Positions 11,670 to 55,898 of a DNA stretch of 64,000 nt are shown one piece after another. Every line of letters starts with the position of its first letter. Within the stretch, counting starts at the first letter, position 1. The position numbers and the translations under genes were made by a program. The notes under the pieces were generated by a model. It ran no database searches and was not told the DNA's origin. It saw only the letters and a program-made list of their open reading frames with translations. Origin of the DNA: Deltaproteobacteria bacterium (GTDB lineage: Bacteria; JAMCPX01); NCBI GenBank assembly GCA_023381995.1, contig JAMCVD010000111.1, positions 545 through 64,544 on the forward strand. Direction: 5' to 3'.

Positions 11670-12860
11670 CTAACTCGTATAGGTCGAGTTGATGCGGATA
11701 TAGTCATAGGTGAGATCGCACGTCATGACGTTGAACGACCTGTTCCCGGCCCCGAGATCGACCGTAAGCTGTATGGTCCTGTTCTTCATGGAGTTCCTCA
11801 CTTTGAGGAGCGACTCATTGTCGATGCCCTTGCCGGAGCTGAAGACGGGCTGTTTGCCGATCCATATCTTCAGTCCCGTTTCGCTCGCGTACGAGCACGC
11901 GGCCCCGACCGTAGCCACGATGCGCCCCCAGTTGGGGTCCTCTCCGAAAAATGCGGTCTTTATCAGCGGCGAGTTTGCGAGCTTGAACGAGACCCTTCTC
12001 GCGTCCTCTTCGTTCCTGGCACCCGTGACGTTGATCTCTATCACCTTGTTGGCGCCCTCGCCGTCTTTGACCATCTTTTCCGCAAGCTCCCTGGTGAGAT
12101 CGATAAACGCCTGCTCGAATGCGGCGTAGTGCCTGCCTTCGTCCGTGATGGTATCGTTTTCAGCGAGCCCGTTTGCCATTACCAGCACGGTGTCGTTCGT
12201 ACTCATTTCTCCGTCTATCGTAATCCTGTTGAACGATGCCTCCGCGGCGCCGAGGAGCGCCTTTTTCAGCGCCCCCTGTGTTATGTTCGCATCGGAGGTA
12301 AAGAAACCGAGCATCGTCGCAAGGTGTGGCTGTATCATCCCCGAGCCCTTTACAAACCCGGTGAGTATCGTCTCCTTGCTGCCGATCTTCAATCTGCGGG
12401 ACCCGTATTTTGGCACTGTATCCGTCGTCATTATCGCCTTTACGGCGTCCATAAAGCCCTGCCGTGACAGATCGTTCTTCAGCGCGGTTATCTGGGATAC
12501 GACCTTTTCGACGGGCAGCCTCCTGCCTATAATGCCCGTCGAGGCAACGAGGATCTCTTCCTGCCTTATATCGAACCCTTTTGCATAGGCACTGATGATC
12601 TCGTTGACGTCCTTTACACCGTCCTTCGCGGTCGCTGCATTGGCAATACCGCTGTTCGCGATGATCATCCTTTTCCTGCCCTTCCTGAGCTGTTCCATGG
12701 AGACGGTGACCGGTGCTGCTTTGATGGCATTGGTCGTGAACAGCCCCGCCGCAATCGAGGGCACCTCCGAGTATACGACGGCCACGTCCTTTTTACCGTC
12801 GTTCTTGAGCCCTGCTGAGCTTCCCGCATACAGAAAGCCTTTGGGTAGTGATAGTGCCAT
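11670..12860 (-). CDS. argJ: Bifunctional ornithine acetyltransferase / N-acetylglutamate synthase
   Basis: GFLYAGSSAGLK...; autoproteolysis site context ATMLGFFTSDA; 396 aa. Confidence 0.95.
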   Translation of the reverse strand: MALSLPKGFLYAGSSAGLKNDGKKDVAVVYSEVPSIAAGLFTTNAIKAAPVTVSMEQLRKGRKRMIIANSGIANAATAKDGVKDVNEIISAYAKGFDIRQEEILVASTGIIGRRLPVEKVVSQITALKNDLSRQGFMDAVKAIMTTDTVPKYGSRRLKIGSKETILTGFVKGSGMIQPHLATMLGFFTSDANITQGALKKALLGAAEASFNRITIDGEMSTNDTVLVMANGLAENDTITDEGRHYAAFEQAFIDLTRELAEKMVKDGEGANKVIEINVTGARNEEDARRVSFKLANSPLIKTAFFGEDPNWGRIVATVGAACSYASETGLKIWIGKQPVFSSGKGIDNESLLKVRNSMKNRTIQLTVDLGAGNRSFNVMTCDLTYDYIRINSTYTS

Positions 12861-12862
12861 GT

Positions 12863-13321
12863 TTATTCTTCCTTAAAGACCACGCACGTATTTTTTAAAT
12901 AAGGCATAACCTTTTCCAACCGCTCCTCCTCACTGAGTTCTTTCCGTTTTTCGAAGGTACCATAGCCCGCTCTTACCCCTATTAGCATAGATGCGGCGAA
13001 TCTCATAGCGTTTTGTAGGATCTCTACGACGTGGATGCAGCCGTGTGTATGACCTATCGCGTCCGCTATCTTCTTGTTTACGCCGCGCTCGATCTTGAAT
13101 CCGATGATCGTACGTATGGTGTCCTTGGCCTTCGAGCACTGCTCGTAGGGGGCGCGCATCATCTTTACGTCCGCATCCACTATCTTCTCCGTCGCAAGAT
13201 CGAGCTTCACCTCTGTCGTTATGCTGTGGTTGAGATCGAGCAGTGATGCGGTGAGCAGGACGGTATTGCTATCTATCGGGAGAAGCCTGATGTTTATGTT
13301 CCTCTCGTACACGTCATACAT
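12863..13321 (-). CDS. DUF2889-like protein
   Basis: 152 aa; the HTHGCIHVVEIL block resembles the GCTHL motif of DUF2889. Recognised from memory only. Confidence 0.5.
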   Translation of the reverse strand: MYDVYERNINIRLLPIDSNTVLLTASLLDLNHSITTEVKLDLATEKIVDADVKMMRAPYEQCSKAKDTIRTIIGFKIERGVNKKIADAIGHTHGCIHVVEILQNAMRFAASMLIGVRAGYGTFEKRKELSEEERLEKVMPYLKNTCVVFKEE

Positions 13322-13874
13322 TGTCGTACACGCCGTCCGCCGGAACGTACCAGAAGTCGCCCATATCTCCGTTCCTCTGCTCCTTGAATTGAATCTTTAC
13401 CTTCATACCGACCTTCGCCATTTTTATGTCCTTTAAAAATATGTTCTGCATGATCAGCGTGTCCGCCCCCTCCACCTTTACGAATGCGCACACGTAGGGG
13501 ACCCTGTCGTAGAAGGTGGAGGTCCCGTAGTAGACGACCGTGTACGTTACGACCTCTGCCGTCTCGCCCAACTCTACCCACTCTGTAGGCGCATAGCATT
13601 CGTTGCAGTTTATGCGCGGAGGCAGCCATACCTTGCCGCAGTGCGTGCATTTCGAACCGTACAGCCTCCTGTTGTCCCTGAGCTCCCTGAAAAACCTCGA
13701 TATGCCGCCGTAGCTGTACTTGTACGTTATATCCATGATGTCCGGGATTTCAAGGGGCGCGTCCATGGCCGGGGTCCCGTCGATCTCGTCTTTGAATGCC
13801 TTGGCAATGAGCTCCTGTGGTACCTTGATCTTTTGAGAGGCATGCTCAAGCCATTTTTCCCTGTCCTTAATCAT
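13314..13874 (-). CDS. Zn-ribbon / OB-fold DUF35 protein (thiolase partner)
   Basis: C-x2-C...C-x2-C ribbon (CTHCGKVWLPPRINCNEC) followed by an OB-fold region. ATG 13874 is preceded by AGGAG; the track start at 13997 is an extension. Confidence 0.8.
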   Translation of the reverse strand: MIKDREKWLEHASQKIKVPQELIAKAFKDEIDGTPAMDAPLEIPDIMDITYKYSYGGISRFFRELRDNRRLYGSKCTHCGKVWLPPRINCNECYAPTEWVELGETAEVVTYTVVYYGTSTFYDRVPYVCAFVKVEGADTLIMQNIFLKDIKMAKVGMKVKIQFKEQRNGDMGDFWYVPADGVYDNV

Positions 13875-13920
13875 CGTCGCTCCTTTGATTTTACTTTGCG
13901 GGACGTCGTGCAATACCTGC

Positions 13921-15174
13921 CTACGGCCCCTTTCGTCTCCTGCCCGATGCGATCCGTTTTTTTGTTCCCGCCCCCGTCTTCTCGATCCTCTGCACAATCA
14001 GGGCGGCCGTCCATGCCGTTGCGGGCCCTCCTATACTCTGTACGAGGCCTGTTCTTGCATTTTTGACCTGCCTTTTCCCGGCCCTTCCCTGCACCTGCAA
14101 TGCCGCCTCTCCCGTCTGCATGACCCCCGTCGCGCCGACGGCATGCCCGCAGCCAATCAGGCCGCCGCTCGGATTGACAGGCAGGGCGCCCGTCATCTCG
14201 ACCACGCCGTCCTCTATCAATCTACCGCCCTGTCCGGGCCCGCAGAGGTCGAACGCCTCGTACGAGAGTATCTCTGCGCCGGTAAACGCATCGTGCAGCT
14301 CTGCGAAATCGAGCTCCCTGGCAGGGCTCTTTATGCTCGCCATTCTGTACGCGTCCCTCCCTGCATGCAGGCTCGACGTAAAGACCGTTATGTCGTCCCT
14401 TTCTCCGGCAAAGGCCTTGTCCAGAGAAAGGCCCACACCCGTTATCCATGCAGGATTGTCCGATAATGAACGTGCCACCCTTTCCGATGCAAGGACGACA
14501 GCGGACGCGCCCTCGGAGTACAGGCAGTTATCGTAGAATTTAAAGGGGTATGTGATCATCTTCGAGCCGAGCACGTCGTCCACGCTCAGCAGCTTCGGGC
14601 TCTGGGCGTTCGGGTTGTTCATGGCGTTCTTGTGGTTTTTTACGGCCACCATTGCCATCTGTTTCTCCGTAGGAGAGCCGTACCTGTCTATGTGCGCTAT
14701 CAGCGGCAGGGCGTACGATGCGGCCGCGGTCAGGCCCGAGGGGTTTTCGAACGTCATGTCTCCGGAAAACAGGATCGCCTTGAGCGTCTCGGGCGTGGAG
14801 TGCCCCACGGCGTAATTATAGTTGTCCGTTGCCTTCTCGACGCCGAGCACCATGACGATATCGTACAGGCCCGAGGCGATCCATGTCCACCCCACAAAGA
14901 CGGCAGCACCTCCCGTCGCACCTCCCGTCGCGACCCTCACCGATGGCTTGAGCCCCATGCCTATATAATTGTGGATATAGACGTCCGGCATGAACTGTCT
15001 TTCGAAAAGCTCGTTGTAGATGCCATACACCACGCCGCCGACCTCTTTTCTGTCGATGCCCGCGTCCTCGAGCGCGAGCTTGGCCGCGTCATAGGCGAGC
15101 TCGTAGTATGTCTTTTCTATCCATCGTGCCCTGAACGGCGTTGTCCCGAACCCTACGATAGCAACTTTATCCAT
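13921..15174 (-). CDS. Thiolase-like (SCP-x / nonspecific lipid-transfer type) protein
   Basis: MDKVAIVGFGTTPF...; thiolase fold with a C-terminal GGLIGCGHAVGATG block. Start at 15174 (SD GGGAGGA upstream). Confidence 0.85.
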   Translation of the reverse strand: MDKVAIVGFGTTPFRARWIEKTYYELAYDAAKLALEDAGIDRKEVGGVVYGIYNELFERQFMPDVYIHNYIGMGLKPSVRVATGGATGGAAVFVGWTWIASGLYDIVMVLGVEKATDNYNYAVGHSTPETLKAILFSGDMTFENPSGLTAAASYALPLIAHIDRYGSPTEKQMAMVAVKNHKNAMNNPNAQSPKLLSVDDVLGSKMITYPFKFYDNCLYSEGASAVVLASERVARSLSDNPAWITGVGLSLDKAFAGERDDITVFTSSLHAGRDAYRMASIKSPARELDFAELHDAFTGAEILSYEAFDLCGPGQGGRLIEDGVVEMTGALPVNPSGGLIGCGHAVGATGVMQTGEAALQVQGRAGKRQVKNARTGLVQSIGGPATAWTAALIVQRIEKTGAGTKKRIASGRRRKGP

Positions 15175-15242
15175 GTCCTGCCCCATTCCTCCCGAAGTTC
15201 CCAGTATAGCATATTCGTGCATTTAATCAATATCGAATGTCT

Positions 15243-16763
15243 TTAGCGTTTCGGGGCACCGATAAATGCCTTTTCGATGCCGATATATCCACCTCCGGGA
15301 AAGGGCTCGAAGCCGTGGACCCTGTCCCTCAAAGCGGTCACGTCGTTCATGTACCAGAGGCTGATGTATGGCAGGTCCCCGGCGATCAAGCTCTGGACGC
15401 GTCTGTAGAGGGGCGCCGAGTCGTTTATATTCAGCAGCTCCATTGCACGTCCGATGAGCCGATCGACCTCCGGGTTTGAATAGTACCCCCTGTTTGCCCC
15501 GTACGGCGGTACGGCCTTCGAATCGAATGCGTAGTAAAATATGCTCGGGTCCATCACATTGACCCATCGTAGCGTGTACATCTGGAAATTGCCGTGGCGT
15601 ATATCGTTGTAAAAAGTCGCCCATTCATACGACCTCAGGTCTACCTTTATGCCCACCTGCCCGAGCTCATAGGCGATTGCCTGCGCCACCCTCATGGACA
15701 GGGGGTTGTTCGACGTCTTGTAATCGAGGACAAACCTGTAGCCGTCCTTTTCGGGAAAGCCCGCCTGATCGAGCAGCCGTTTCGCCCTTGAGGGGTCATA
15801 GGTATACTGCCGCAGGTCAGGATTGTACGCTGTGTTCCACGGAGGCAGGATGCCCGCGGCAGGTTCTGCCTGGCCGAACAGCACATAGCGTATGATCCCC
15901 GGCCTGTCGATGGCGTACGCTATTGCCTGCCTTACCTCTTTGATGCGGAGTATGGGGTCTTTCATATTGAAGCCGATGTATTCGTAGTTGTTTCCGGGAC
16001 CTATGATGAACTTTATGTGCCTGTCGTGCTCGAGGCTTTCTATAGAGTCCGGGGGCACTGCATTGACAAGCATGTCTATGCTGCCCTTCTCGAGCTCGAG
16101 CACGCGCATAAGGTCATCGGGTATGACCCTGAATACGACATGCTTTATCCCCGGTGGCCCCCGCCAGTAGCCGTCGTACGCATCGAGCCTGACGTACCTT
16201 GCCTGTCTGTACGCGGTGAGGACGTAAGGGCCTGTACCCGTAAGGGCATCTGGGGGTATGTTTTCTCTGTACGCGAGCCTGTGTGGCAGTATGCCCACGG
16301 TAAACGCGGTGAGTATCGGCGCATAGGGGCCTTTCAGGTGTACGATAAGGCTGAACGGACCCGGGACCGAGATATATTTTATATGTGACAGGGCGTCTTT
16401 ATAGGGGGAATAGGTCCCGGACTTTATGATGCCCTCTATCGTCGAGAGCACGTCCTGGGCTGTAAAGGGCGAGCCGTCCTGGAACTTGATGCCCTTTTTC
16501 AGGGTAATCAGGACCGTCGTATTGTCTTTGACTACGACGTCTTCGGCGAGCAGCGGGGCGAGTATGCCGTCCCTTTTGTATCTCATCAGGCCCTCGAAAC
16601 ACAACCGTGCTATCTGCCCGGAGTATGCATCGGTGGCATACCTCGGATCGAGGTTTGCAGGGCTGCCCTCTATGCCTATAACAAGCGTGGACGTCGCGGG
16701 CGGGTGTTTATTGCAGGATAGGAGGGACAGGGCCACGACCAGCACCGTGAATACTTTTTTCAT
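15243..16763 (-). CDS. ABC transporter substrate-binding lipoprotein, family 5 (peptide/nickel type)
   Basis: Lipobox LSLLSC; SBP_bac_5-like sequence over the full length (506 aa). Confidence 0.85.
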   Translation of the reverse strand: MKKVFTVLVVALSLLSCNKHPPATSTLVIGIEGSPANLDPRYATDAYSGQIARLCFEGLMRYKRDGILAPLLAEDVVVKDNTTVLITLKKGIKFQDGSPFTAQDVLSTIEGIIKSGTYSPYKDALSHIKYISVPGPFSLIVHLKGPYAPILTAFTVGILPHRLAYRENIPPDALTGTGPYVLTAYRQARYVRLDAYDGYWRGPPGIKHVVFRVIPDDLMRVLELEKGSIDMLVNAVPPDSIESLEHDRHIKFIIGPGNNYEYIGFNMKDPILRIKEVRQAIAYAIDRPGIIRYVLFGQAEPAAGILPPWNTAYNPDLRQYTYDPSRAKRLLDQAGFPEKDGYRFVLDYKTSNNPLSMRVAQAIAYELGQVGIKVDLRSYEWATFYNDIRHGNFQMYTLRWVNVMDPSIFYYAFDSKAVPPYGANRGYYSNPEVDRLIGRAMELLNINDSAPLYRRVQSLIAGDLPYISLWYMNDVTALRDRVHGFEPFPGGGYIGIEKAFIGAPKR

Positions 16764-16769
16764 GCTTGA

Positions 16770-16860
16770 ATTTTATAATGGCCTGTGATATATGTCAAAC
16801 CCCCGGGAAATGGGTATCTGTAGGGGAATGTTTGACATATTTTGACGGGTTCTTAATAAT
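16770..16860. promoter_or_regulatory. Divergent promoter pair embedded in an 11-bp perfect inverted repeat
   Basis: ATATGTCAAAC (16790-16800) and GTTTGACATAT (16830-16840). Each arm supplies a TTGACA -35. Plus strand: 17-nt spacer then AATAAT (16855-16860). Minus strand: 17-nt spacer then TAAAAT (16775-16770), 6 nt before the ATG at 16763. Confidence 0.35.
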
Positions 16861-16880
16861 AAGAACGAGGAGGAGATGGT

Positions 16881-17252
16881 ATGAAGCAAAAGGCGACAGA
16901 TTTTTTTGAGAGTGTGTCGTTGAGCGAGATAGCGGGCAAGCTGCTCTCGTCAAAGAGGATACAGCCTGTATTGAACAGGAGTTTCGAGCAGATGATGAAA
17001 TTCAAGTCAAGGCTCGATGCCGTCATGCCTATGGCGCTCGGCCTGCTGAATATGCCTTCCGTGGAAGACATCAAGAGGCTCAATAACGAAGTCATCAGGC
17101 TCGGTTCCATGCTCGCGGAGATGTCGCAGAAGTTCGAGCCCCCCAAGAGGGTCAGGAAAAGGAGGAGAGCGAGGAAGGCAAGGCAGTCCGTTCATGCGTC
17201 TCAGAAAGGGTCTCAGGACACTGCTCCGGCACAGGACATCAAGAGCGTTTGA
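16881..17252 (+). CDS. Small coiled-coil protein, phasin / PHA-granule-associated-like; basic C-terminus
   Basis: SD GAGGAGGAG upstream. The LLNMPSVEDIKRLNNEV motif resembles the LN(I/L)PT..DV..L motif of phasin/PhaE-type proteins. Weak call. Confidence 0.35.
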   Translation: MKQKATDFFESVSLSEIAGKLLSSKRIQPVLNRSFEQMMKFKSRLDAVMPMALGLLNMPSVEDIKRLNNEVIRLGSMLAEMSQKFEPPKRVRKRRRARKARQSVHASQKGSQDTAPAQDIKSV

Positions 17253-17335
17253 GCCGGAGGGGACGGGGCCGACACGACGGGACGTCCCGCCCTACCAGCG
17301 GGACGAAGCGAATGGGACTGCGGCGAGCTTCCTGC

Positions 17336-18394
17336 TCAGCCGACCAGCTTTAAGAAAGAATCTTTTACGGTCCTGAATTGTCTCTTTATCTTGTCGGATG
17401 CCGAGCGCGACATTTCTTTCTTCAGCACTATTTCTCCCAGTATCTGCTTTAGCTGGGGGATCTTCTTCCATGTCGCAATGGCGCCTGCCGCAATGAACTC
17501 GGACCTGTTCTTTTTGGGCAGGTAGCCCGGGTTGCTCGAATAGAAATCGCCGACGTCCGGCACAATCTGTACGTCCGCATCGGTGCCCCATTTCTGCACC
17601 TGAAAGTTCTTGCCGAATATCGCCAGGGTACGCAGCAGGGTCTTGATCGGCTTCTTCTCCATGTTCTTGATGTCCCTGGTGAGATATTCGAGTCCCCTGC
17701 CGCCCGTTACGATGAACTGCTTGGTAAGGCTTTTCGAAGTCAATAGCTTCAAGAGACGTGATACAGAGAGGCCGGAGCCATAGAGGAACTCGTTGTATAT
17801 GTTCACTATGGAGACTATGACCACGTCGGCGCCCTTGCTTTTCAGCCAGTCGACCGGCACATCGTTTCCGAACGACCCGTCCACGAGGAGCATGTTGCCG
17901 ACCTTGGCTGGCTTCCATGCACCCGGCACCGCACAGGAGGCGTATATCGCATCCCTGAGGTATCCTTCGTTTATGTAGACCGTCTTGCCGGAGACGATGT
18001 CCAGCGCCGTAATCTCCAGGGGAATCTTCACGTCGTCGAAGGTAGCGTTCCCGAAAAGTGCCTTCAGCCATCCTTTGAAGAACGACGAGTCGAAGAACTC
18101 GTCGTTCTTTCCTTTCTTGATTTTGAATATGGACCTGTTCTTTAGTGTCTTTTCGAAGACAGACCAGCTCGAAAGGTAGCCATAGAGCGCATAAAGCCCT
18201 GCCACTATTGAGCCTGCACTGCTGCCCGCTATAAGATCGATGGGGATAAACTCGTTGTACAGGACACGGAGGACACCGACATGGGCAAGCCCCCTTATCG
18301 CTCCGCCGCTCAGGCATACTCCTATCTTTAAGGGGGTTCTTGGTCTTCTGTTATACTCTACTATCATCTTCTCCAAGGGTTTTTTATCTTCCAT
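17336..18394 (-). CDS. Patatin-like phospholipase
   Basis: GGAIRG oxyanion motif, GSSAG nucleophile elbow, DGSFGN catalytic Asp. Confidence 0.9.
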   Translation of the reverse strand: MEDKKPLEKMIVEYNRRPRTPLKIGVCLSGGAIRGLAHVGVLRVLYNEFIPIDLIAGSSAGSIVAGLYALYGYLSSWSVFEKTLKNRSIFKIKKGKNDEFFDSSFFKGWLKALFGNATFDDVKIPLEITALDIVSGKTVYINEGYLRDAIYASCAVPGAWKPAKVGNMLLVDGSFGNDVPVDWLKSKGADVVIVSIVNIYNEFLYGSGLSVSRLLKLLTSKSLTKQFIVTGGRGLEYLTRDIKNMEKKPIKTLLRTLAIFGKNFQVQKWGTDADVQIVPDVGDFYSSNPGYLPKKNRSEFIAAGAIATWKKIPQLKQILGEIVLKKEMSRSASDKIKRQFRTVKDSFLKLVG

Positions 18395-18470
18395 TAGGAG
18401 CCTCCCTTGGTACTATATACATTGCCCGGAGATCAAATAGCAACAGATTTTTGATTTTTCATTCAATGGT

Positions 18471-19781
18471 ATGGAACATACCGGCATCGGGGCCCTCCGG
18501 ACGAAGCGCTTGAAAAAAAAATGCAAAGACAGTACTACATACCTGATGACCGGTAAAATGAACAACAGTACCCTGAACCAACTGCTTGCGACCCTGTCGC
18601 TTATCATCGACTATCAGGGCGGCGAACAGCTTTATCATGCATGGCGCGTGGCGATAGTGGCGAAATATGTTTGCGATGAGATCAGCCCCGCGGAGTCCCA
18701 GTGGCTTTTTTACGCAGGTCTGCTCCATGACGTGGGTATAACTGGGATTGAAAGCCACCCTGCGCGGTATCCGGAGCTCGAGGAGTCGCACCTGTCATAC
18801 TGGCTCCGATACCATCCTGTGATAGGCGCAAATATCGTGGAGAAGATACCGGGCTTGAGCCGCGTTGCCCCATGGATAAGGGACCATCACGAATGGATCA
18901 ACGGTAAGGGCTTCCCTGCACACAAGAGAGAGCAGAGCATACATGTAAACAGCCAGATACTACGAGTGGCGGACGATTACGACCTGAGATTCAGGACCAG
19001 GGCCGGATTGACACGGTCCGACATGTACGAGTATTTCAGATCGCATGTAGGCACGGAATTCAGTCCTCATATGTGGGATGTGCTACGAAGGCTCAACAGC
19101 AAGGACATGGGGCTGTTTTTCTTCGAGGTAAACGACGAAAGCCGGCTGCCGTATAAGCTTAAGGAGATCATGCATGACCTCCCGGCCATCGATGGTACGG
19201 TGTCCGAGGATGTGTCCATAGATGTGATCCTCCGGGTGTTCGGCATAGTCATCGATGCCAGGCACCATTATACAGCCGGGCATTCCGAGAGGGTGAGAGA
19301 GTATTCTATGATCCTCTCGAAGCGGCTCGGGATAAAGGGGCATGAGTTGAAGAGCATAGCGAGGGCTGCATACCTCCATGACCTCGGCAAGATAGCCACC
19401 CCCCTTTCCATCCTTAATAAGGCAGGACCGCTGAATAAGTCGGAATGGAAGACGATGAGAAGGCATACGATCTATACGATGGAGCTGATAGACGCAGTAG
19501 AGGCGCTCTGGGAGCTGGGGCCCCTGGCCGGCTATTCGCAGGAGCGGTATGACGGCACGGGCTATCCGGACGGGCTCAAGGGAAGTGCGATACCCATGGG
19601 TGCAAGGATCATCGCGGTGGCCGACGCCATAGACGCGATAAAGACGAGGAGATCGTACAAGAGGGCGTTAAGCTGGCGCGTTGTTGTCAGAGAACTGAAA
19701 AAGAGCTCCGGAAGTATGTACGACCCGGAGATCATAGACCACGCGATTGACTATATTACGGAAGAAAAGCTGGCTCTATAG
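18471..19781 (+). CDS. Tandem HD / HD-GYP domain protein (putative c-di-GMP phosphodiesterase)
   Basis: Domain 1: HAWRVA...LLHDVG...DHHEWINGKGFP. Domain 2: HSERV...YLHDLGKIATP...ERYDGTGYPDGL. The exact start is uncertain. Confidence 0.85.
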   Translation: MEHTGIGALRTKRLKKKCKDSTTYLMTGKMNNSTLNQLLATLSLIIDYQGGEQLYHAWRVAIVAKYVCDEISPAESQWLFYAGLLHDVGITGIESHPARYPELEESHLSYWLRYHPVIGANIVEKIPGLSRVAPWIRDHHEWINGKGFPAHKREQSIHVNSQILRVADDYDLRFRTRAGLTRSDMYEYFRSHVGTEFSPHMWDVLRRLNSKDMGLFFFEVNDESRLPYKLKEIMHDLPAIDGTVSEDVSIDVILRVFGIVIDARHHYTAGHSERVREYSMILSKRLGIKGHELKSIARAAYLHDLGKIATPLSILNKAGPLNKSEWKTMRRHTIYTMELIDAVEALWELGPLAGYSQERYDGTGYPDGLKGSAIPMGARIIAVADAIDAIKTRRSYKRALSWRVVVRELKKSSGSMYDPEIIDHAIDYITEEKLAL

Positions 19782-19786
19782 ATGAG

Positions 19787-20287
19787 TTAGCCTGGCCGTG
19801 GTAATGGGCCCTCCAGCATGTCCATGTTCCTGACATGCTCGATCCTCCCGTCCCTCGTCAGGAAGACTACCTCTTTTATCCGTGCGTTGCGGATCATGCG
19901 CCTGCAGAGGAGGCACGGCTTCCCGTCTGCAAACACCGGCTCCTCGACCTCGATCCCTGCGATATAGATCGTTGCGTCTTTCATTCTGTCTGGTGTGCCG
20001 TTGATGATTGCGTTCTGCTCGGCATGGACGCCCTCGCAGAGCTCATAGCGCTCTCCGGAGGGCACATGGAGGTCCTTCCGCTTGCACCTGTTGACGTCCG
20101 AACAATTGGTCATGCCTCTCGGGGAGCCGTTGTATCCGGTGCTGATGATCACGTCGTCCTTTACTATGACGGCGCCGTACATCCTCCGTATGCAGGTGGA
20201 GCGCGAGGAGACCACCTTCGCAATCTCTATGAAATACTCGTCCCAGCACGGCCTTTTGTGTGCCTTTTTGTCTTTCCTCCGGTCCAT
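19787..20287 (-). CDS. dCMP deaminase (ComEB-type cytidine/deoxycytidylate deaminase)
   Basis: HAEQNAI and PCLLCRRMI zinc motifs. Start taken at MDRRKDKK; the track start at 20308 is also possible. Confidence 0.85.
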   Translation of the reverse strand: MDRRKDKKAHKRPCWDEYFIEIAKVVSSRSTCIRRMYGAVIVKDDVIISTGYNGSPRGMTNCSDVNRCKRKDLHVPSGERYELCEGVHAEQNAIINGTPDRMKDATIYIAGIEVEEPVFADGKPCLLCRRMIRNARIKEVVFLTRDGRIEHVRNMDMLEGPLPRPG

Positions 20288-20588
20288 CCTGAAACGAAAA
20301 ACAATCATATCGCTGGCCGTATGTCAATCAAAAGCTTCATAAATACACAAGGTATAGGACCTGAAACGTCCTTATACCCATATGTCGTGGCATGCTGTTT
20401 CCCGATGGGAGAGATGCCGCCGCAGAACGGCTTGACAGTTTCCCGAAGATCGTTTATGCCAAAGGTACTATGTATCGAAAGTTGATCGAAGGGGTCGGGG
20501 AGATCGGGTGCAGAGATGGCCTTTCCGCGGACGTCCTTATCGGAGGTTCGGGGTCAGCAATGCCCTCTGTCCGGATTGACACACACAC

Positions 20589-22010
20589 ATGCGCGAAGGA
20601 ATAAAGGCCGGCAATGTACTCTGTCTCTACCCCTATGTAAAAGAGGTACCCATTTACGAGTTTTTCCCGCCCATCGGCCTCGAGTATGTAGCGACCGCGG
20701 TGAGCGATATGGTCGAGAGCATAAGGATCGTGGATTCCCGGTATGTCAAAGATCCGATAAGCCATTTTACCCCCTCTGTCGATACCGCCCTTGTGAGCGT
20801 GAACTGGAACTACACATACGATGAGGTGTGCGAGATGATACGTCGGATCCCGGCCCATATCAGGATCGTCGTCGGAGGGAGGCAGGCCACCGACTGCGTC
20901 GAGGACCTGTTCCAGAGGTGTCCGAACATATCGATAATCGTGAGAGGGGAGGGCGAGGCGACCGCCAGGGACCTTTTCAGCGGGAGACCGCTGGAAGAGG
21001 TAAAGGGGATATCGTACGTTGATAACGGGAAAGTCGTCCATAATGAGCCCAGGCCCCTGCCTTCTCTCAACAGCCTTAAAAGCCCGGACAGGAAGCTCAG
21101 GACAACGATATACCGTGCCACCATAAGAGGCATCGATCTTGGAGTGGGGTTCGATGCCATCATGAGCTCCCGCGGGTGTCCGTACAACTGTAAATTCTGT
21201 ACCTTCAAGCTCAACCCACTCGGACAGATGCGGAAGTGGGAGGCCAGGACCCCGGAATCCACGGTCCGGGAGATCGAGGCCATCGATGCTGATTTTATCG
21301 CGTTCGTAGACGACAATTTTACCGCCGATATGAACAGGGTCGAGAGGATCTGCGACCTCATCATCTCACAAGGCATAAAGAAGATGTTTTTGTGCAACGT
21401 AAGGATCGACATCGCCCGCAGGCCTGCACTGGTCGAGAAGATGAAGAAGGCGGGATTCAAGATCCTCATGGTGGGACTGGAGTCCGCACAGGACAGGTCG
21501 CTGGTGGCACTGCAGAAAGGCTTCAAGACGGACAGGGTGAGAGAGGCGTTCAAGGTCCTGTCAAAATCAGGCATGCTTATCAACGGATATTTTATTGTCG
21601 GGATCATCGGCGAGGTCGAAGACGAGATGCTTATGATCTCGAAGTATGCCCGAGAGATAGGAATAGACTTCATATCGTTAAGCAGGCTCAGGTGGGAGAA
21701 ATTCTCTCCGCTGGAGGACGTCGTCAAGGCTACCCCCGGCTATTACATAGGGAAGGACAACGGCATATACTCAGAGAAGTACGGAAGAAAAGAGCTGACC
21801 GCGATACTGAAGAGGATCGATCACGATTTTTACACCCCGGGTCAGGTCAAGCAGATCGCCGGGAAGGCGTTGAGGCTCGGTGTTCTTACACCCCGCCGCC
21901 TGTTGAGGCTCCTGTACTATGTGCCGTACATTCTCTTGAAGACAAACGCGAGCAAGCGGAGGCTCAGGAGGGTGATGAGAACGATAAAAAAAGAGAATGT
22001 TCCTGGATAG
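20589..22010 (+). CDS. B12-binding-domain radical SAM protein
   Basis: N-terminal cobalamin-binding-like domain followed by SSRGCPYNCKFCTF (CxxxCxxC). Confidence 0.85.
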   Translation: MREGIKAGNVLCLYPYVKEVPIYEFFPPIGLEYVATAVSDMVESIRIVDSRYVKDPISHFTPSVDTALVSVNWNYTYDEVCEMIRRIPAHIRIVVGGRQATDCVEDLFQRCPNISIIVRGEGEATARDLFSGRPLEEVKGISYVDNGKVVHNEPRPLPSLNSLKSPDRKLRTTIYRATIRGIDLGVGFDAIMSSRGCPYNCKFCTFKLNPLGQMRKWEARTPESTVREIEAIDADFIAFVDDNFTADMNRVERICDLIISQGIKKMFLCNVRIDIARRPALVEKMKKAGFKILMVGLESAQDRSLVALQKGFKTDRVREAFKVLSKSGMLINGYFIVGIIGEVEDEMLMISKYAREIGIDFISLSRLRWEKFSPLEDVVKATPGYYIGKDNGIYSEKYGRKELTAILKRIDHDFYTPGQVKQIAGKALRLGVLTPRRLLRLLYYVPYILLKTNASKRRLRRVMRTIKKENVPG

Positions 22011-22120
22011 GATGTCATCGAGATATCGAAATGGCATAAAAAGAGAGCAGTATAACAGGACAGTAACCGTACGTAGTGCTTTGCAGGTCGATGTAGGCTT
22101 TGTATTTTCATGTGTAGGAA

Positions 22121-22345
22121 GTGAACATGTCTGAAGATACAGGGAGAAAGACCATGTCTCCGGGACAGAGGATAAGGCTTGTAAGGGGAGCAAGGACGCA
22201 AGCTGAGTTCGCACTGCTTATCGGAAAGCACAAGGACGACGTGATCAGGTATGAGGCCGACATCAATGCCCCGTCTTTGCTCACCCTGTCGAAGATAGCC
22301 GGAATTGGCAATGTGACGGTCGAATGGCTGCTTCACGGCAAATGA
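22121..22345 (+). CDS. XRE-family helix-turn-helix transcriptional regulator
   Basis: GQRIRLVRGARTQAEFALLIGKHKDDVIRYE...PSLLTLSKIA; 74 aa. Confidence 0.75.
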   Translation: MNMSEDTGRKTMSPGQRIRLVRGARTQAEFALLIGKHKDDVIRYEADINAPSLLTLSKIAGIGNVTVEWLLHGK

Positions 22346-22483
22346 TTTTGTGGCTCCCGCCTTTTTCATGGGTCCGGCGTGGAGGTCTTGGATCAACCCG
22401 AATCCCGGGGTGATCGCAATTTGATCACTGCAGGTCGATCCGATGGTCTCACGAACGGCCACGTAGTGGGGAAACAACATAGT

Positions 22484-22499
22484 TAATTATGCATAATTA
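22484..22499. promoter_or_regulatory. Perfect 16-bp palindrome TAATTATGCATAATTA (candidate operator)
   Basis: Read directly from the sequence. It lies in an AT-rich spacer downstream of the XRE gene. No function has been shown. Confidence 0.3.
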
Positions 22500-22650
22500 T
22501 GTATCACAATTATCTTACCTATACTCCAATACCGATGTCATCTATACATAAAATATCCCTCATGTAACGCTTAAATCGATCAGCCAGGCATTATATGCTG
22601 CTGATACGGGGGGGTATATACCGTCTAAACCAGATCGCCTTCGGAAATGG

Positions 22651-22889
22651 GGTTCCTCTCCCCTTTGTGATCATGAAGAAAGAGTTTTCTCCTCTGCTCG
22701 TAAAACAAAGCTCTTTTCGGTAAAGGGGGTTACGACCCATAACGTCTCCGTATTTCCATAGCGAGAGAGAAGCAGTCCACGCAGCGTACCACGGAAGCAT
22801 TGCAGGCAGTCCGGATGTGTTTCCCTTCGCAGTGTCGAAAACTCTTTCTTTTTGTTCTATCAGTCCCATGATCACTTTTGGGATAAGAG
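22651..22889. repeat. 239-nt repeat family, copy 1
   Basis: Aligns without indels to 28750-28988 (8 differences) and 55210-55448 (6 differences). The flanks are unrelated. All three copies are co-oriented. Confidence 0.9.
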
Positions 22890-23139
22890 CCGAATATGAA
22901 TGTTTTAAAAGAGCGAACCGGTGCCAATTTGTCACCAGTTCATTTTTTTCATACTTTGTCAGTTTAAACATAAACTCTTTTGGGAATCTTTCTCTATTCC
23001 TTTTAACTTGTCTATTAAGGTGTTTTGTTTCCACGCCATAAAGGATAGCCAGATCCCGATCCAGCATTACCTTCTGTCCCCGGATTAATAAAATCTTCTG
23101 CTCTATCGTTTCGACCGGAACAAGTGCCTTTGTTTCCAT
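22890..23139 (-). pseudogene. ORF6N (KilA-N-like) domain gene, 3'-truncated at the repeat boundary
   Basis: METKALVPVETIEQKILLIRGQKVMLDRDLAILYGVETKHLNRQVKRNRERFPKEFMFKLT... is a typical ORF6N N-terminus. The expected continuation (PYAFTE...) is replaced by repeat sequence. Confidence 0.6.
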
Positions 23140-23409
23140 GATTCCTCCAAACTAAATACCATACATTTATTTATACGCTATTAAGTCGTATGCGGATAGC
23201 GTTGCAGTAATTCAGGATCATCAAGTCCACCAACATTACTGGCACCATTCAAATCAAGTAAACATACTGTTAACTATGTTTCCAGTGCTTGCTTTAGTCT
23301 TGATTCCTTAGCTGTTTTGGATCAAATTCAAGGCAGGGTGATCACAATAGGGGATCACAGTGGTGAAATCCAATGACGAAAAGAAACCCTAACTCGTTGA
23401 AAAATAAAA

Positions 23410-23483
<74 letters not shown>

Positions 23484-23588
23484 TCAAGAATATCGATTAT
23501 AGACAATTACTGCGGTATGTCAAGCATTAAACAAGCCCCTCCTGTTCCACTCGATATTTTACCCAATATTTTGCCCGACATTTTACTA

Positions 23589-23617
23589 TTGACATAATCC
23601 ATCAAGTAAAGTAAACT
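23589..23617 (+). promoter_or_regulatory. Candidate sigma70-type promoter for the PKD/LVIVD gene
   Basis: TTGACA (23589-23594), 17-nt spacer, TAAACT (23612-23617). Confidence 0.3.
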
Positions 23618-23636
23618 ATGCCGAGAGGTGATACTT

Positions 23637-26600
23637 ATGAGGGGAAGCGGGAAACATCGTGCATCGAAATGGCTCGGGGTCTCAGCGGGTCTATTGTTGT
23701 ACGCGGTCTTTTCATTCTCGGGCTGCAGTTCCTGCAGCAAGAAACCGCCGCATCCCGCACCGGGCAAACCGCCCATCATCGACAGCTTTACAGTAACAAG
23801 CGGCGGCCAGATTACCAACAGCAGCTATATCCCTTTCTCCGCAGCTGCTCCGCTCACGGCCTTTACCTTTACCGTGGTCGCCCACTCCCCGTCACCACAG
23901 ACACCGATCGTCTCATACGAGTGGAGCTTCATGGACGATCAGTACGGCAACCCGAACTTTATCCTGACGACGACGTCCCCGACAGCGGCCTACACCTATA
24001 CCCAGACAAACAGCTATCTCGTTACGGTACGCGTCACGGATAGCAAGGGCAATTTTACCGACAGCACCAATTGCAACGATGCTGTCGGGACAGGTTGTCT
24101 GTTGAGTATTTATCCGAGGACCTTGATCTCCCTCCTCCTCGTCCCCACGACCTCCCTGTACAACCCTGTGCCCTTGCAGGTATCCGTCCAGGCGAAGGTG
24201 GTCCCGACGACTCCGGGGGCGTCCGTGAGCCGATACGAGTGGGACTGCGGCAACGGTACCGTGTTCACGGACACCGACCCTGCCACGTTCACGTACCAGG
24301 ACCCCTACACAATAAACCTCGGCACCTGTACCTACGATAGCATAGGCACGTACACCCTTACAGCCAAAGTAACGGACTCCCTCGGATACTTCACCTCGGC
24401 GTCCCTCCAGGCTACAGGAGAGGTCAGCATAGCCCCCCTGTCCATGTACCAGCTCGACGGCCAGGGGTACAACGTCACGTTCAAGAACAACTATGCCTAT
24501 CTTGCGGACGGTACGGCAGGCCTCAAGATCATCGACATGTCCAATCCGTCCTCTCCCGTGCTCATCGGCAGATACTGGGACCCCTACGCCCTGCCTGTCT
24601 ACGGGTGCTCCCCGTTCGGCTCGTACCTGTACTGCGCATGGAAGACGACCGTCTATATATTCGATATATCGGACCCTGCCTCTCCGCGCCTGGTCTCGAG
24701 GGCCGATAAGCCGCCGGGAGTGCAGCAGTTCAAGGACGTGGAAAAGGTGATCGTGACCGATATAAGCGGAACGGACTATCTGTTCGCCCCGGACCGCCAA
24801 TCAGGCACGATCTCTATCTTCGACCTGAGCAATTTCCTGAGCTATTTTTCCCAGCCCACGTGGATAACGGACACCGCGCCGATCTGGATACCCGGTTCCC
24901 CTACGCCAGCGGGCGTCTACGACATGTTCATTACCTCGACGACGGGTGTGAACCCCACATACTATGCCTATGTTGCCGCGTATACCGGCGGCTTTGCCAT
25001 CTACAACGTGTCCGATCCAACGAACATCACGGGGACCACCGGGTACATGTATCCCATCAATTATCCCTCGACCCCTTATGACGGGTATACAGGGGTCACG
25101 CTTACCGATACGAACTATGCCTACATCGCAGATAGTATATATGGGGTCCTGCTTGTCGACGTGAGCGATCCTACCAACCCGCATTTCGACGGTCTGGGAA
25201 TCCCGATTATGTCAGGAACACCACAGGGCATAACCGGCATCTGGGCAACAGACACGACGGTGTATCTCGCTGCAACTATATCTTCAAAGGGCTATCTCTA
25301 CACCTGCACCACGACGTGGAGCAGCCCGCCGTCTATCTCCTGTGCATCTTCTGTGCAGTTAGCGCCGGTCAACCAGGCAAACGGGATCGCCGGAGGGATG
25401 ATCGGCCCGAACATCTATGCATTCGTTGCCAACCAGGAGGGCCTCAATGTCTTTACCGCGGCGACCGGCTATACGCCGACGCCCGTGTCTTTCTACATGT
25501 CAAGCGGCCATACCAGCCGGGTCAGGATAACCGATCTCCTCGCAGACGGATTCAGCTACACGGCGCTTGTCTCGAACTATTATCGGCAGAGCAATTCCTC
25601 CAACGGACTGAGCGGCGGTGCCGTGGATGTCGTAGGCTACGGCTTTACACAGGGCATGCAGCCAACGTTCCTGTCCCGGCTCACGGCGCCCACGGACACC
25701 CACGGTACAGCGGTCACACAGACCACGCTCGAGGGCTATCCTATGACCGTGGGCGCTGTTGCAGGCGGCATCTACGTGTACCTGTTCGATCTGACGAACC
25801 CGGCCTCGCCGGTACCCATAAACCAGACACTGCCGAACCTGCAGGAAAGCTGGTATGACAGTATAAACAATACAGCTTCGCCACCATACAACAACACTGA
25901 ACAGTACGACAGGCTTTATTTCTCTGACCCCGGCCACTTTATCGTGGGCGATGCGGCCCAGTTGGGAGCATACAGCGTCCTTATCCCGGACGCATTCATC
26001 ACGCCGACATCCTATACGCTCTATGGATACCCAAGCATTATGGGCACGACGTCAAGCGATCTCTGCATCGACCCGTTTACCAGCAGCGTGATATTGGTCA
26101 TGGGCGCCACATTCTCATCAGGGGGCGGAGGCTCGTATGCGGCCGTGGATGCGTACGACAGAACAACAGCCACCTTTCTGAGCCAGGTCAACCTTGGCTA
26201 TCCAGACGTCTCAAACCTCTCGGAGCTCTCCATGTACTGCGGCACCAGCTATATATACGCAACGACCGGGTCAACGCTCTGGGTCATCGACTATTCGAAC
26301 ATCGCCAGCCCGAGGGTCGTGGGCTCGCTTACCCCATCGTCCAACATACGTATGACCGGGATCAAGGTCATAGACCACATAGGATTTGCGAGCTACCACA
26401 CCGCTGCGATCGATGCCAATTGTAGCGGCGGCACCGATAATGGCGGCAAATCCGGCGGCTTCCTCGTGTTCGATATAAGGAACCCGTCGAACATAGGCAT
26501 ACTGGGCAGCATGAACTGGGCGTCCCTGAGCATGACCTTCCCGCAGGACGACGACTGCCTCTACTCGACCGACCTCGACGCATTCAGGGGCCCGGACGGG

Positions 26601-26756: not shown

Positions 26757-27150
26757 GTGTCAAGCGACATTGAAAAGTGATCAAGAAAACGACACGAAAA
26801 GTGTACCACCCGAGCCATTAAAAACTCCCTTTTCTCCTGATTTCACCCCATGCCAGGGTATCAACCACCTCCCGATCGTTTGGCAATGAGGCTTTTAGAA
26901 AGCCGTTTTTCGACTTTCTGACGTCAATCGTACCACCCCAGCCTGTCTGGGGTATGTGTGCCTTCATAGTCATTGTTTCGTAGACTCCACGTGTTCTGAA
27001 GCCATTTTCCCCTTCGACTGCCAGCTCTGCCCTTTCATGTTGACGATGATGCTGTGATGCAGGAGCCGGTCCAACAGCGCACTGACGATGATCGGGTCTT
27101 CGAACAGCTCTGTCCGCTCCGCAAAGGCCTTGTTGCTTGTAATGACCAAA
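26757..27150 (-). mobile_element. IS21-family remnant: last ~59 codons of istB plus the putative right end
   Basis: The minus-strand frame at 27147..26970 reads VITSNKAFAERTELFEDPIIVSALLDRLLHHSIIVNMKGQSWQSKGK..., the conserved IstB C-terminus. The downstream region carries two GGTGGTAC repeats. istA and the istB 5' part are absent. Confidence 0.5.
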
Positions 27151-28320: not shown

Positions 28321-28701
28321 TTATGCCAAAAAGGCTTTAGGGGGATGAAAAATGGAGTTAACAAAATCCTGTGAATGGAGAGATACCTCATTCATGATGA
28401 TTTTAAAGCTGCGTGATTTTGAAAGGGATAGGACGTTTGATAATGACAATAGAAGTATATCACTGCTATTGGTTGAAACAGACCCATTGCCTCCTGAAAT
28501 CAAATTATGTCCTATAATTCTATCAGAAGAATGGCATAAAATACTATTTTTACCATGGTTCTCATCCCCCTCATCATCATGAGTTACGATATCCTGATCG
28601 TACGTATCAATTGCTCTGGATATACCGGTGGGTAGGTATATAAAAAGGACCGTTAGCAAACTAACCATATACAGTATGTCTATTCTCCGAAGTATTTTCA
28701 T
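28321..28701 (-). CDS. Small N-terminally membrane-anchored protein, unknown function
   Basis: MKILRRIDILYMVSLLTVLFIYLP... then an acidic and Ser-rich tail; 126 aa. The track ORF 28321..28974 extends through repeat copy 2 and is judged chimeric. Confidence 0.4.
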   Translation of the reverse strand: MKILRRIDILYMVSLLTVLFIYLPTGISRAIDTYDQDIVTHDDEGDENHGKNSILCHSSDRIIGHNLISGGNGSVSTNSSDILLLSLSNVLSLSKSRSFKIIMNEVSLHSQDFVNSIFHPPKAFLA

Positions 28702-28707
28702 ACTTGT

Positions 28708-28736
28708 ATGATACATCAACATTGTATTTATGTCAA
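28708..28736 (-). promoter_or_regulatory. Candidate sigma70 promoter, leaderless geometry
   Basis: Minus strand: TTGACA, 17 nt, TATCAT, ACAAGT, then the ATG at 28701. Confidence 0.35.
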
Positions 28737-28749
28737 GAAGCAAAACAAC

Positions 28750-28988
28750 GGTTCCTCTCCCCTTTGTGATCATGAAGAAAGAGTTTTCACCTCCGCTCGT
28801 AAAACAAAGCTCTTTTCGGTAAAGGGGGTTACGACGCATAACGTCTCCGTATTTCCATAGCGAGAGAGAAACAGTCCACGCAGAGTACCACGGAAGCATT
28901 GCAGGCAGTCCGGACGTGTTTCCCTTCGCAGTGTCGAACACTCTTTCTTTTTGTTCTATCAGTCCCATGATCACTTTTAGGATAAGAG
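28750..28988. repeat. 239-nt repeat family, copy 2
   Basis: See copy 1. It has 8 differences from copy 1 and 10 from copy 3, with no indels. Confidence 0.9.
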
Positions 28989-29315
28989 TTAAAAGATTTA
29001 CTATAAGAAAGCTTGTGTATCAGTCCGGTTAGTCTGAACCCGTGCCCAATGATTCGCTGAAATATTTAAACCGTGCAGTCTACAACCTTTGGCTTCATGT
29101 TTGAACCGAAATCAGGACGGTTATTGACCTTTACAAAAATCTTTCTTACTATCCATAAAGATAATTGATACCAGTAATTCACTGAATGAATTCTCGGAAA
29201 GAGCACTGAATGACGGCATGCCCGATACGATAACGTATTGAAATAAAGTGTCAAAAGTGGCACTGAAGAGTTGACCAAGGGGAAATTATAATGTATACTG
29301 ATTTTCATTGAATTT

Positions 29316-53841: not shown

Positions 53842-55206
53842 CTATTTTATCGTTGCGACGATGCCCTGCGTAGCCGGGGAAACGACGTAGATCGCATTTG
53901 TCAGGATATCGCTGACGTATGCCTGCCCCGTTTCCGGATCTATGATGACGTGCTCCGGCAGGCCGAGTCCCAGAATGGTCTTTATCCCTTGCGCTGCGGT
54001 CGTATCGAATGTGAACATATCGTCGTTGCCGAGCGCAGTTGTGCCGGGGTTCATGTAGAACGAGACCCTGTCGTATATGCTGTCGAAGAAGGCACCGTCG
54101 ACGACCTCGTCCGGCTGTAGCCCGGAAGCCGTACCTGCAACGGCGTAGTTTTTCGCAGTGGAATCGTAGACGACGCTCCATGCCTCGGACTGCGTTGTGC
54201 AGTCGTCCGTGGTTATGCCCTGTATGGACGGCGCCTCGTTGGAAGGGACCGAACTTGTTAGCCTGAGGCCCGTGTACGAGCTCGGTATCGAGGGCACGCT
54301 GCACCCATGGTCTATGTCCAGAAAGTGTAGGTAGCCGTCGGCGTTGGCAACGATGCCGAGGTACGAGAAATGATTGTCGTCGAGCAGCACCCTTTGCGGT
54401 GTGATAGCAAAGTCCTTCGGGATCCCGGGTATGGTAAATTCGTATCCGACGCTCCCTGAGTCTGCGTCTATGGACTCAAAGATATAGGCCGTTCCGCTGA
54501 ATGCGACGGCGTACAGTAGTGTCCTGTCATACTGGCTCAGGATTCGCATGGACGCGACAGGGTAGTCGGTGCTTATGGTGGTGATTGGCTCGAGGGTATG
54601 GGGATCCAGGACGTCTATGATCGGCCTGTTCCGGAAAGAAAGGAAGAGCCTGCCGTCGTCAGGCCCCGTTGTCATGGATGACGGGGGAGAGTCCAATGCT
54701 ACCGATGCGGCCGGCGTCATGGAACTGCCCACCGTGAATGATTCCATGTAGGTGTTGCCGCCCTGTGCATCGAGCACGTACAGCATCGAGGTCCGATGGA
54801 TCAGCAACGTTTTCAAGGGATAGCCCTTTAAATATTCGGTACCGGTGATCTGGTTGTCGGCGAGATCGAGCGATTCGAGCATTGCCGTCGACTGTGTGAA
54901 GCCTGCGATATAAAGATGGCCGTTGCTGTATTCCAGAGAGTCGGGGTACATATCGAGCGGTATCGCATTGTACGTGCCGGTGGGCGTGGTTATGCCCATG
55001 ACGGTGTTTGTGGATGTATTTATCTCCGATACCGTGCCTGTAAACATGTTCGCGACGAAGAGGGCCTCCGTGGTCGATGACGGCAGGGAGCCGAGTACCA
55101 TCGAAGAAGGGTAGGTGAAGTTGCTCGTGGACGACGTCGATGTACTGCAAGCGGAGACCGCAGCTGCAATCAGTACGAACAGGAATGTATGGACCGATCT
55201 TCTCAT
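53842..55206 (-). CDS. Beta-propeller-like surface lipoprotein (YVTN-type terminal repeat)
   Basis: ATG 55206 gives MRRSVHTFLFVLIAAAVSAC (lipobox). The body is beta-rich and ends with GQAYVSDILTNAIYVVSPATQGIVATIK. The track ORF up to 55461 reads through repeat copy 3 and is judged chimeric. Confidence 0.6.
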   Translation of the reverse strand: MRRSVHTFLFVLIAAAVSACSTSTSSTSNFTYPSSMVLGSLPSSTTEALFVANMFTGTVSEINTSTNTVMGITTPTGTYNAIPLDMYPDSLEYSNGHLYIAGFTQSTAMLESLDLADNQITGTEYLKGYPLKTLLIHRTSMLYVLDAQGGNTYMESFTVGSSMTPAASVALDSPPSSMTTGPDDGRLFLSFRNRPIIDVLDPHTLEPITTISTDYPVASMRILSQYDRTLLYAVAFSGTAYIFESIDADSGSVGYEFTIPGIPKDFAITPQRVLLDDNHFSYLGIVANADGYLHFLDIDHGCSVPSIPSSYTGLRLTSSVPSNEAPSIQGITTDDCTTQSEAWSVVYDSTAKNYAVAGTASGLQPDEVVDGAFFDSIYDRVSFYMNPGTTALGNDDMFTFDTTAAQGIKTILGLGLPEHVIIDPETGQAYVSDILTNAIYVVSPATQGIVATIK

Positions 55207-55209
55207 TTT

Positions 55210-55448
55210 GGTTCCTCTCCCATTTGTGATCATGAAGAAAGAGTTTTCTCCTCTGCTCGTAAAATAAAGCTCTTTTCGGTAAAGGGGGTTACGACCCATA
55301 ACGCCTCCGTATTTCCATAGCGAGAGAGAAGCAGTCCACGCAGAGTACCACGGAAGCATTGCAGGCAGTCCGGATGTGTTTCCCTTCGCAGTGTCGAACA
55401 CTCTTTCTTTTTGTTCTATCAGTTCCATGATCACTTTTGGGATAAGAG
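55210..55448. repeat. 239-nt repeat family, copy 3
   Basis: See copy 1. It ends 3 nt from the ATG at 55206 (minus strand: ...GGGAGAGGAACC AAA ATG). Confidence 0.9.
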
Positions 55449-55898
55449 CCTGTCCCCCCAATGTTAACCCGAAAAATGCAATAGGGAAGTTTGCTCATTC
55501 GTTTGGGGTACCCATGCGGGGCAGGGGGCGTACGATCCACCTATAAACTATATAAGTTTTTTTCATAAGGAATGGTATAGTCCTCTGTAAGTTTATATGC
55601 ACAAACCGACGTTATGGTTTTTGTCGATATTCGAAGAACACCCCTGTTCGGCGCAGGCTTATCACTCATTACACAAACTTCGCTCTCTTACAAATGCATT
55701 TTTCGGCCTAATGGAAGTTTTTCACTTTGCAGCATCCGCCCCGAACGGCCCTATAGACGCGCCTATAACATTCCAATTGACGCCGTAGTCCACATCGCAT
55801 TTTGGCTGTGATCTTGATCAGGGCGCCGTATTCTCTTGACAACGTCTATCGCTATTGATAAAAATGTCAAAAAATTGCAGGCTTGAACGGGGCCGTCG

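Follow-up and report, generated by a model that had tools for sequence, protein, structure and literature searches.

Correia elements of Neisseria, ERIC of enterobacteria and RUP of Streptococcus are 100-250 bp long, carry inverted termini and occur in many intergenic copies. When transcribed they can form long hairpins, and they are sometimes placed so as to alter the expression of neighbouring genes. Closer to the case described here are elements of the ISL3 family. ISArsp7 has inverted repeats that start with GGCTCTT and 8-bp direct repeats, and ISPst2, another ISL3-family IS, also has 8-bp direct repeats (PMC6305408, Table 3). A MITE of 187 nt from Microcystis aeruginosa PCC 7806, which has GGCTCTTCG termini and direct repeats of 8 nt, was ascribed to ISL3 transposases (PMC11448079).

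We are confident that the repeat studied here is a 241-bp non-autonomous MITE of the ISL3 family, which makes 8-bp target duplications. Its termini match those of ISL3-family ISs, 8-bp duplications are found at its borders, copies are numerous, one of them has a paralogous empty site and the sequence is free of coding constraint. Mobilisation would occur in trans, by an active partner IS presumably located in the same genome.

The window, that is the whole stretch of 64,000 nucleotides analysed, contains three copies of the repeat (Table 1). As proposed in the initial annotation, these copies are co-oriented, all on the plus strand, and free of indels. They differ, as first counted, at 8 (copy 1 versus 2), 6 (1 versus 3) and 10 (2 versus 3) positions, and the sharp boundaries and unrelated flanks described for them were recovered. 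No fourth copy was found elsewhere within the 64-kb window. The repeat had first been given a length of 239 nt; comparison of ten copies shows that the true unit is 241 nt long (GGTTCC...GAGCC). The GAGCC terminus is present in nine of the ten full copies, and window copy 2 has TT at this place.

Copy 1 is found with identical flanks in an independent assembly. Region 12638-25218 of the window, MITE included, is 100% identical to contig JAMCWN010000014.1 of GCA_023481185.1. Two Logan short-read contigs (L020 and L021, from SRR10278331 and SRR10252151) are also 100% identical to the window, and their 3' ends lie exactly 29 nt inside copy 1. These ends indicate that the repeat fragments k-mer assemblies.

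Table 1. Positions of the MITE copies and of adjoining genes in the window. The strand of the MITE copies is that of the parent-IS orientation.
Feature	Position	Strand	Remarks
MITE copy 1	22651..22891	-	241 nt; from the IRL-type end (22891) to the IRR-type end (22651) in parent-IS orientation
MITE copy 1, IRL-type terminal inverted repeat	22866..22891	-	GGCTCTTATCCCAAAAGTGATCATGG on the minus strand
MITE copy 1, IRR-type terminal inverted repeat	22651..22674	+	GGTTCCTCTCCCCTTTGTGATCAT
MITE copy 2	28750..28990	-	Outermost two bases of the IRL end diverged (TT for CC on the plus strand)
MITE copy 3	55210..55450	-	IRR-type end ...GGGAGAGGAACC on the minus strand
Truncated ORF6N-domain gene adjoining copy 1	22892..23139	-	Pfam ORF6N, E = 9e-23, profile positions 2-62 of 86
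Predicted lipoprotein gene (MRRSVHTFLFVLIAAAVSAC...)	53842..55206	-	ATG 3 nt from the IRR-type end of copy 3

The translated minus-strand frame was compared with 5.8 billion proteins. The 15 matches are all hypothetical proteins from two 'Deltaproteobacteria bacterium' MAGs, and several of them are partial at contig ends. The contigs of GCA_023481185.1 that encode such matches contain 7 more full and 2 truncated copies of the MITE. In total, at least 12 copies (10 full and 2 truncated, in the window and in contigs L001-L005 and L018) were thus found. They are located at unrelated loci, in both orientations and mostly between genes. Because they are 96-99% identical, a recent expansion in one uncultured 'Deltaproteobacteria' population is indicated. 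Two exact scans of 185,579 species-representative genomes, one for a 20-nt pattern from the core and one for the IRR-type terminus, gave 0 matches each; neither the host nor the exact parent IS is in this collection.

Two forms depart from the 241-nt unit. One truncated copy (L018 4038-4147) retains only 110 nt, counted from its IRR-type end, and is located 77 nt upstream of a rubrerythrin gene. A 296-nt variant is present at L001 9979-10274 and L002 3883-4178. Its extra 56 nt end in a second IRR-like terminus, CATGATCACTTTTGGGAGAGGAACC. When the L001 copy is delimited by this outer terminus, the 8-mers on its two sides are identical (8/8, AATATGCC), and this duplication indicates that the 296-nt variant transposes as a unit.

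The origin of the termini was searched for in JGI metagenome contigs, which were scanned exactly with the 22-nt right terminus of the MITE. Nine loci were identified, where only the terminus matches the MITE. One of them (L011, Ga0315310_10009385, positions 2525-3880) is a 1356-bp IS whose upstream end is the MITE terminus. The IRL-type end of the MITE is identical to this upstream end over 26 of 26 nt, and its IRR-type end matches the transposase-distal end of the IS, GGCTCTTGTCCCATTTGTGATCAT, at 20 of 24. Weak similarity (84.6-85.7%) reaches about 42 nt inside the IRL, and the MITE core is unrelated to the IS. The 416-aa ORF of the IS matches Pfam DDE_Tnp_ISL3 (PF01610) with E = 1.1e-78 and PF13542 with E = 2.7e-10; HTH_Tnp_ISL3 is above threshold and Zn_ribbon_ISL3 just under the Pfam cut-off. 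The eight other loci, in Ga0315296 contigs, represent at least 8 IS copies. They are contig ends that enter an IS of the L011 type and cover its IRL and 5' leader up to the ATG of the transposase.

Related ISs (L015-L017, L023 and L024) have the same type of terminal repeats as the MITE and encode transposases that are 75-97% identical. On a 34.8-kb contig, the L023 element (Ga0315309_1000221, positions 2882-4238) lies between identical 8-bp direct repeats, TAAAAACT (8/8). Plasmid homologues of the L011-type transposase, at most 42% identical, are annotated as members of the ISL3 family. Moreover, the IRL of the MITE begins with GGCTCTT, as do ISArsp7 and the Microcystis ISL3 elements. The statement that no IS family is recognisable in the repeat was thus wrong. 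The two possibilities left by the initial annotation were a new MITE or a structured RNA. The MITE is retained, the structured RNA is not, and neither is the novelty. Since the termini match an ISL3-family IS, the repeat is an ordinary MITE by the reckoning of the initial annotation itself, in which a match to a known IS family counted against a new element.

Full-length ISs whose ends match were found only in other metagenome contigs, and the terminal repeat is all that they have in common with the host sequences. The closest transposase clusters are likewise from other samples (ERR12264628, Ga0315309/10, Ga0212089, GCA_040961595/615). We could not find an IS with the exact GGTTCCTCTCCC end; the nearest one differs from the IRR-type end of the MITE at 4 of 24 positions. 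A tblastn search for an ISL3 transposase over about 135 kb of host-derived DNA (window, L001-L005, L018 and L019) gave none. From these two results, the true parent is probably not among the ISs found. IS copies are typically missing from MAG bins.

Target duplications were searched for at the borders of the ten full copies. At L004 4979-5219, the same 8 bp, TTCAGAGA, are present on both sides of the MITE (8/8). The flanking 8-mers agree at 7 of 8 positions for both L004 9373-9613 and the L003 copy, and at 6 of 8 for the L002 copy. In the window, agreement is only 5/8 for copy 1 (GGAAATGG / GAATATGA) and 5/8 for copy 2 (AAAACAAC / AAAAGATT), and copy 3 has no recognisable duplication (0/8). 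Four of the ten full copies, window copy 3 included, have 4 or fewer matching positions, and three more, among them window copies 1 and 2, have only 5. Over all copies, 45 of 80 flank positions match, where mismatched flank pairs would give 28.6 (permutation p = 0.002). The target sites are A+T-rich (TTCAGAGA, AATATGCC, TAGATTTT-type). Copies with a poor duplication or none, which include all three in the window, have probably undergone later events. Two copies may have recombined, neighbouring DNA may have been deleted, for which the ORF6N gene would be an example, or the assembly may have been joined across the 241-bp repeat.

The MITE at L004 4979-5219 also provides a paralogous empty site, as it is inserted within a repeat that belongs to a second family. 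When this MITE and one TTCAGAGA are deleted, the remaining sequence aligns continuously to three uninterrupted members of that family. An orthologous empty site was sought in three other assemblies via the neighbouring radical-SAM protein, and none was found. At the copy 1 locus all three agree with the window at 100% identity; the MITE is present in one, and the two others stop 29 nt after entering it.

The second family, unrelated to the first, consists of MITE-like repeats of about 245 nt. One member is located at 55461-55706 of the window and starts 10 nt from copy 3. Others are at L004 3649-3886 and L001 8090-8333, and the copies are 86-90% identical. Partial copies are at L004 4901-4970, L001 11167-11267 and L005 205-245. 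The inverted termini are about 35 nt long (TTAACCCGAAAAATGCA...GGAAGTTTG). The flanks TTAA/TTAA (L004) and TTGA/TTGA (L001) behave as direct repeats, which suggests a target duplication of 3-4 bp. In L004 and L005, the ISL3 MITE has inserted into members of this family. A 52-nt stretch (window 55749-55800), which may be a third short repeat, is shared with L002 2769-2820 of the same organism with 86.5% identity. Finally, three imperfect 45-nt direct repeats, 60-76% identical, are present within a coding region at 37002-37121 of the window.

The 241-nt repeat could in principle be an assembly artefact or the product of chimeric metagenome assembly. Its length of 241 bp is near that of reads or k-mers, target duplications are missing at several copies, and L001 and L002, as long as the extended variant had not been recognised, appeared to have one flank in common and the other different. 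However, copy 1 and both its flanks are identical in the independent assembly GCA_023481185.1, and specific substitutions and indels distinguish the copies. Perfect 8-bp duplications at two copies would not be created by a chimeric join. With these observations, we consider an artefact extremely improbable.

A mobile element derived from an ISL3-family IS accounts for the data as follows. The MITE has kept both inverted termini, the expected binding sites of an ISL3-type DDE transposase, and has no transposase gene; its core of about 150 nt bears no relation to the parent IS. The transposase would be provided in trans by a full-length IS that carries such ends, and would excise or copy the MITE. 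Insertion would take place at cuts staggered by 8 bp, mostly in A+T-rich intergenic DNA, and would produce the 8-bp target-site duplications. The long closing helix simply reflects the pairing of the two inverted termini with each other.

The 18 of 25 match between the ends, noted initially, holds for the outer 25 nt, and only once the two extra end bases are counted. Inside it, a subterminal complement of 12-14 nt has one side offset by a 16-nt insertion. Its 14-nt form, which had been called perfect, is so in copy 1 and in the L003 copy; eight of the ten full copies, window copies 2 and 3 among them, have an uncompensated G/A mismatch there.

We considered that the repeat might be a family of structured non-coding RNA genes, with the closing helix and the 150-nt core selected for an RNA function. 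Copies of the repeat are mostly intergenic and the fold is more stable than that of shuffled sequences (z = -3.4 for the minus strand and -2.8 for the plus strand). Such a stability is expected of any element with long inverted termini, and the two strands fold about equally well, as inverted repeats in DNA should. A comparison with Rfam, which had been suggested, identified no family: the tRNA-Met is the only match above gathering threshold over the window, and the permissive mode gave only chance snoRNA matches (E > 4) over copy 1. No covariation was observed on the minimum-free-energy structure of the ten copies, 388 of 500 shuffles reaching the observed score, in a test made uninformative by the 96-99% identity of these copies. 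The central helix pair 52-206 is non-standard and uncompensated in 7 of 9 distinct sequences (8 of 10 copies). The repeat is confined to one population, as judged from 15 of 15 protein matches and 0 matches in 185,579 species genomes. Finally, an RNA gene leaves no room for 8-bp target duplications and IS-matching termini. The structured-RNA proposal, with neither an Rfam match nor covariation and with its key helix mismatched in most copies, is therefore unsupported, and we regard it as very improbable. Three other ideas were also dropped once inverted repeats, duplications of 8 bp and a match to ISL3 had been recognised: an omega-RNA, a bridge-RNA and an element of the IS200/IS605 type, which has no inverted repeats, no duplication and a fixed 5' target.

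The minus-strand reading frame raised another question, that of a coding module, which would yield either a separate small protein (about 80 aa) or a peptide inserted in frame, as with the Rickettsia palindromic elements. The frame is open in the three window copies, as first described, with an ATG inside the terminal repeat, and annotation pipelines have called these ORFs hypothetical proteins. Openness is not maintained in all copies elsewhere, since three of the ten have lost 1 nt and are thereby frameshifted. Further MITE-derived ORFs among the protein matches are frameshifted or internally deleted versions. Relative to the consensus, the open frame of the ten copies has 20 substitutions, 16 nonsynonymous and 4 synonymous, distributed 7:8:5 over the codon positions, with no excess at the third one. 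The sole homologues among 5.8 billion proteins are other copies of the repeat. At copy 3, the frame is fused upstream of a lipoprotein signal peptide, which makes no sense as a protein. The 241-nt repeat is without coding constraint. The initial argument against coding was thus correct and is strengthened by the frameshifted copies; we give a coding module almost no credence.

The insertion sites in the window were examined with respect to neighbouring genes. Copy 1 adjoins a truncated ORF6N gene, as had been noticed, and the Pfam match ends at profile position 62 of 86. The missing part of the gene is absent from the 400 nt beyond copy 1. In the surrounding region, 22100-23500, the truncated gene has as neighbours a tRNA-Met (23410-23483, minus strand) and a small gene for an XRE-type HTH protein (22121-22345). 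Its GC content is 46.5%, versus about 54% for the window. This region looks like the remnant of a tRNA-integrated element.

Copy 2 lies in DNA of low GC content and precedes an unannotated ORF by 40 nt. The same low-GC DNA, at 26-30 kb, contains an IS21 remnant at 26970-27149 (minus strand): a lone C-terminal fragment of the helper protein IstB, which matches Pfam IstB_IS21 (E = 7e-14) over profile positions 188-236 of 238.

Copy 3 lies next to a predicted lipoprotein gene, in which no Pfam family was found. The naive ORF at this place (53842-55461, 539 aa) is the lipoprotein extended by 85 spurious residues. It is one of two long minus-strand ORFs, with 28321-28974, that are artefacts of the open MITE frame entering a downstream gene.

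These neighbourhoods led us to consider that the MITE has been co-opted at some sites, where a hairpin of about 30 bp in the mRNA, or at copy 3 a ribosome binding site, would alter the stability or translation of the neighbouring gene's mRNA, in the manner known from Correia or ERIC elements. Such co-option would add to the MITE explanation and not replace it. At copy 3, the GGGAGAGGAACC terminus ends 3 nt before the ATG of the lipoprotein gene, and the sole Shine-Dalgarno-like sequence upstream of this gene is GGAGAGG in the MITE terminus, 7 nt before the ATG. Same-strand genes start 44 nt (L003) and 77 nt (L018) past the same end of the MITE. However, the copies show no preferred orientation towards the genes downstream: about 7 of 12 are on the same strand, at distances of 3 to 440 nt. 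A simple promoter scan gave no sigma-70-like site inside copy 1, and the near identity of the copies points to recent spread and not to a conserved function. Co-option at some sites therefore appears unlikely. We think it rather improbable that some copies are cis-regulatory 5'-UTR modules, in which the copy 3 terminus would replace the native ribosome binding site of the lipoprotein gene and the helix of about 30 bp, once transcribed, could sequester the site so supplied or become an RNase III target. Were this true, the spread of the MITE would rewire the translation of surface and lipoprotein genes in an uncultured lineage. A regulatory role of the MITE is possible but unsupported.

As an ISL3-derived mobile element, the 241-bp repeat is mainly of value for annotation. 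It yields spurious 'hypothetical protein' calls of 54-98 aa, at least 15 of them in deposited MAGs, creates false N-terminal extensions and breaks short-read assemblies. It also marks recent activity of an ISL3 transposase in an uncultured sulfate-reducer-like lineage. MITEs derived from ISL3 elements, with GGCTCTT termini and 8-bp duplications, are already known, and the repeat poses no new biological question.

Among classical MITEs, Correia and RUP elements have TA as target duplication, and the parent families of classical MITEs differ from that of the present one. To our knowledge, the sequences of Correia, ERIC and RUP elements show no similarity to the 241-nt MITE. The Microcystis MITE and the present one are both short and non-autonomous, with imperfect termini starting with GGCTCTT, 8-nt repeats, a stem-loop and small spurious ORFs over the termini, and for both the assignment to ISL3 follows the same logic of matching termini. 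The two nevertheless differ in length (187 versus 241 nt) and belong to different phyla, and their termini, GGCTCTTCG in Microcystis and GGCTCTTAT here, diverge past the first 7 nt. ISArsp7 and ISPst2, unlike the MITE, are autonomous and 1.4-3 kb long. The ISs represented by L011, L023 and the Ga0315296 contigs differ from it in a comparable way: those of the L011/L023 type are 1356-1357 bp long and encode a DDE_Tnp_ISL3 transposase of 404-416 aa, whereas the MITE has 241 bp and no transposase sequence. They share with the MITE the A+T-rich 8-bp duplications and the terminal repeats, identical over the 26 nt of GGCTCTTATCCCAAAAGTGATCATGG at one end and matching at 20 of 24 positions at the other.
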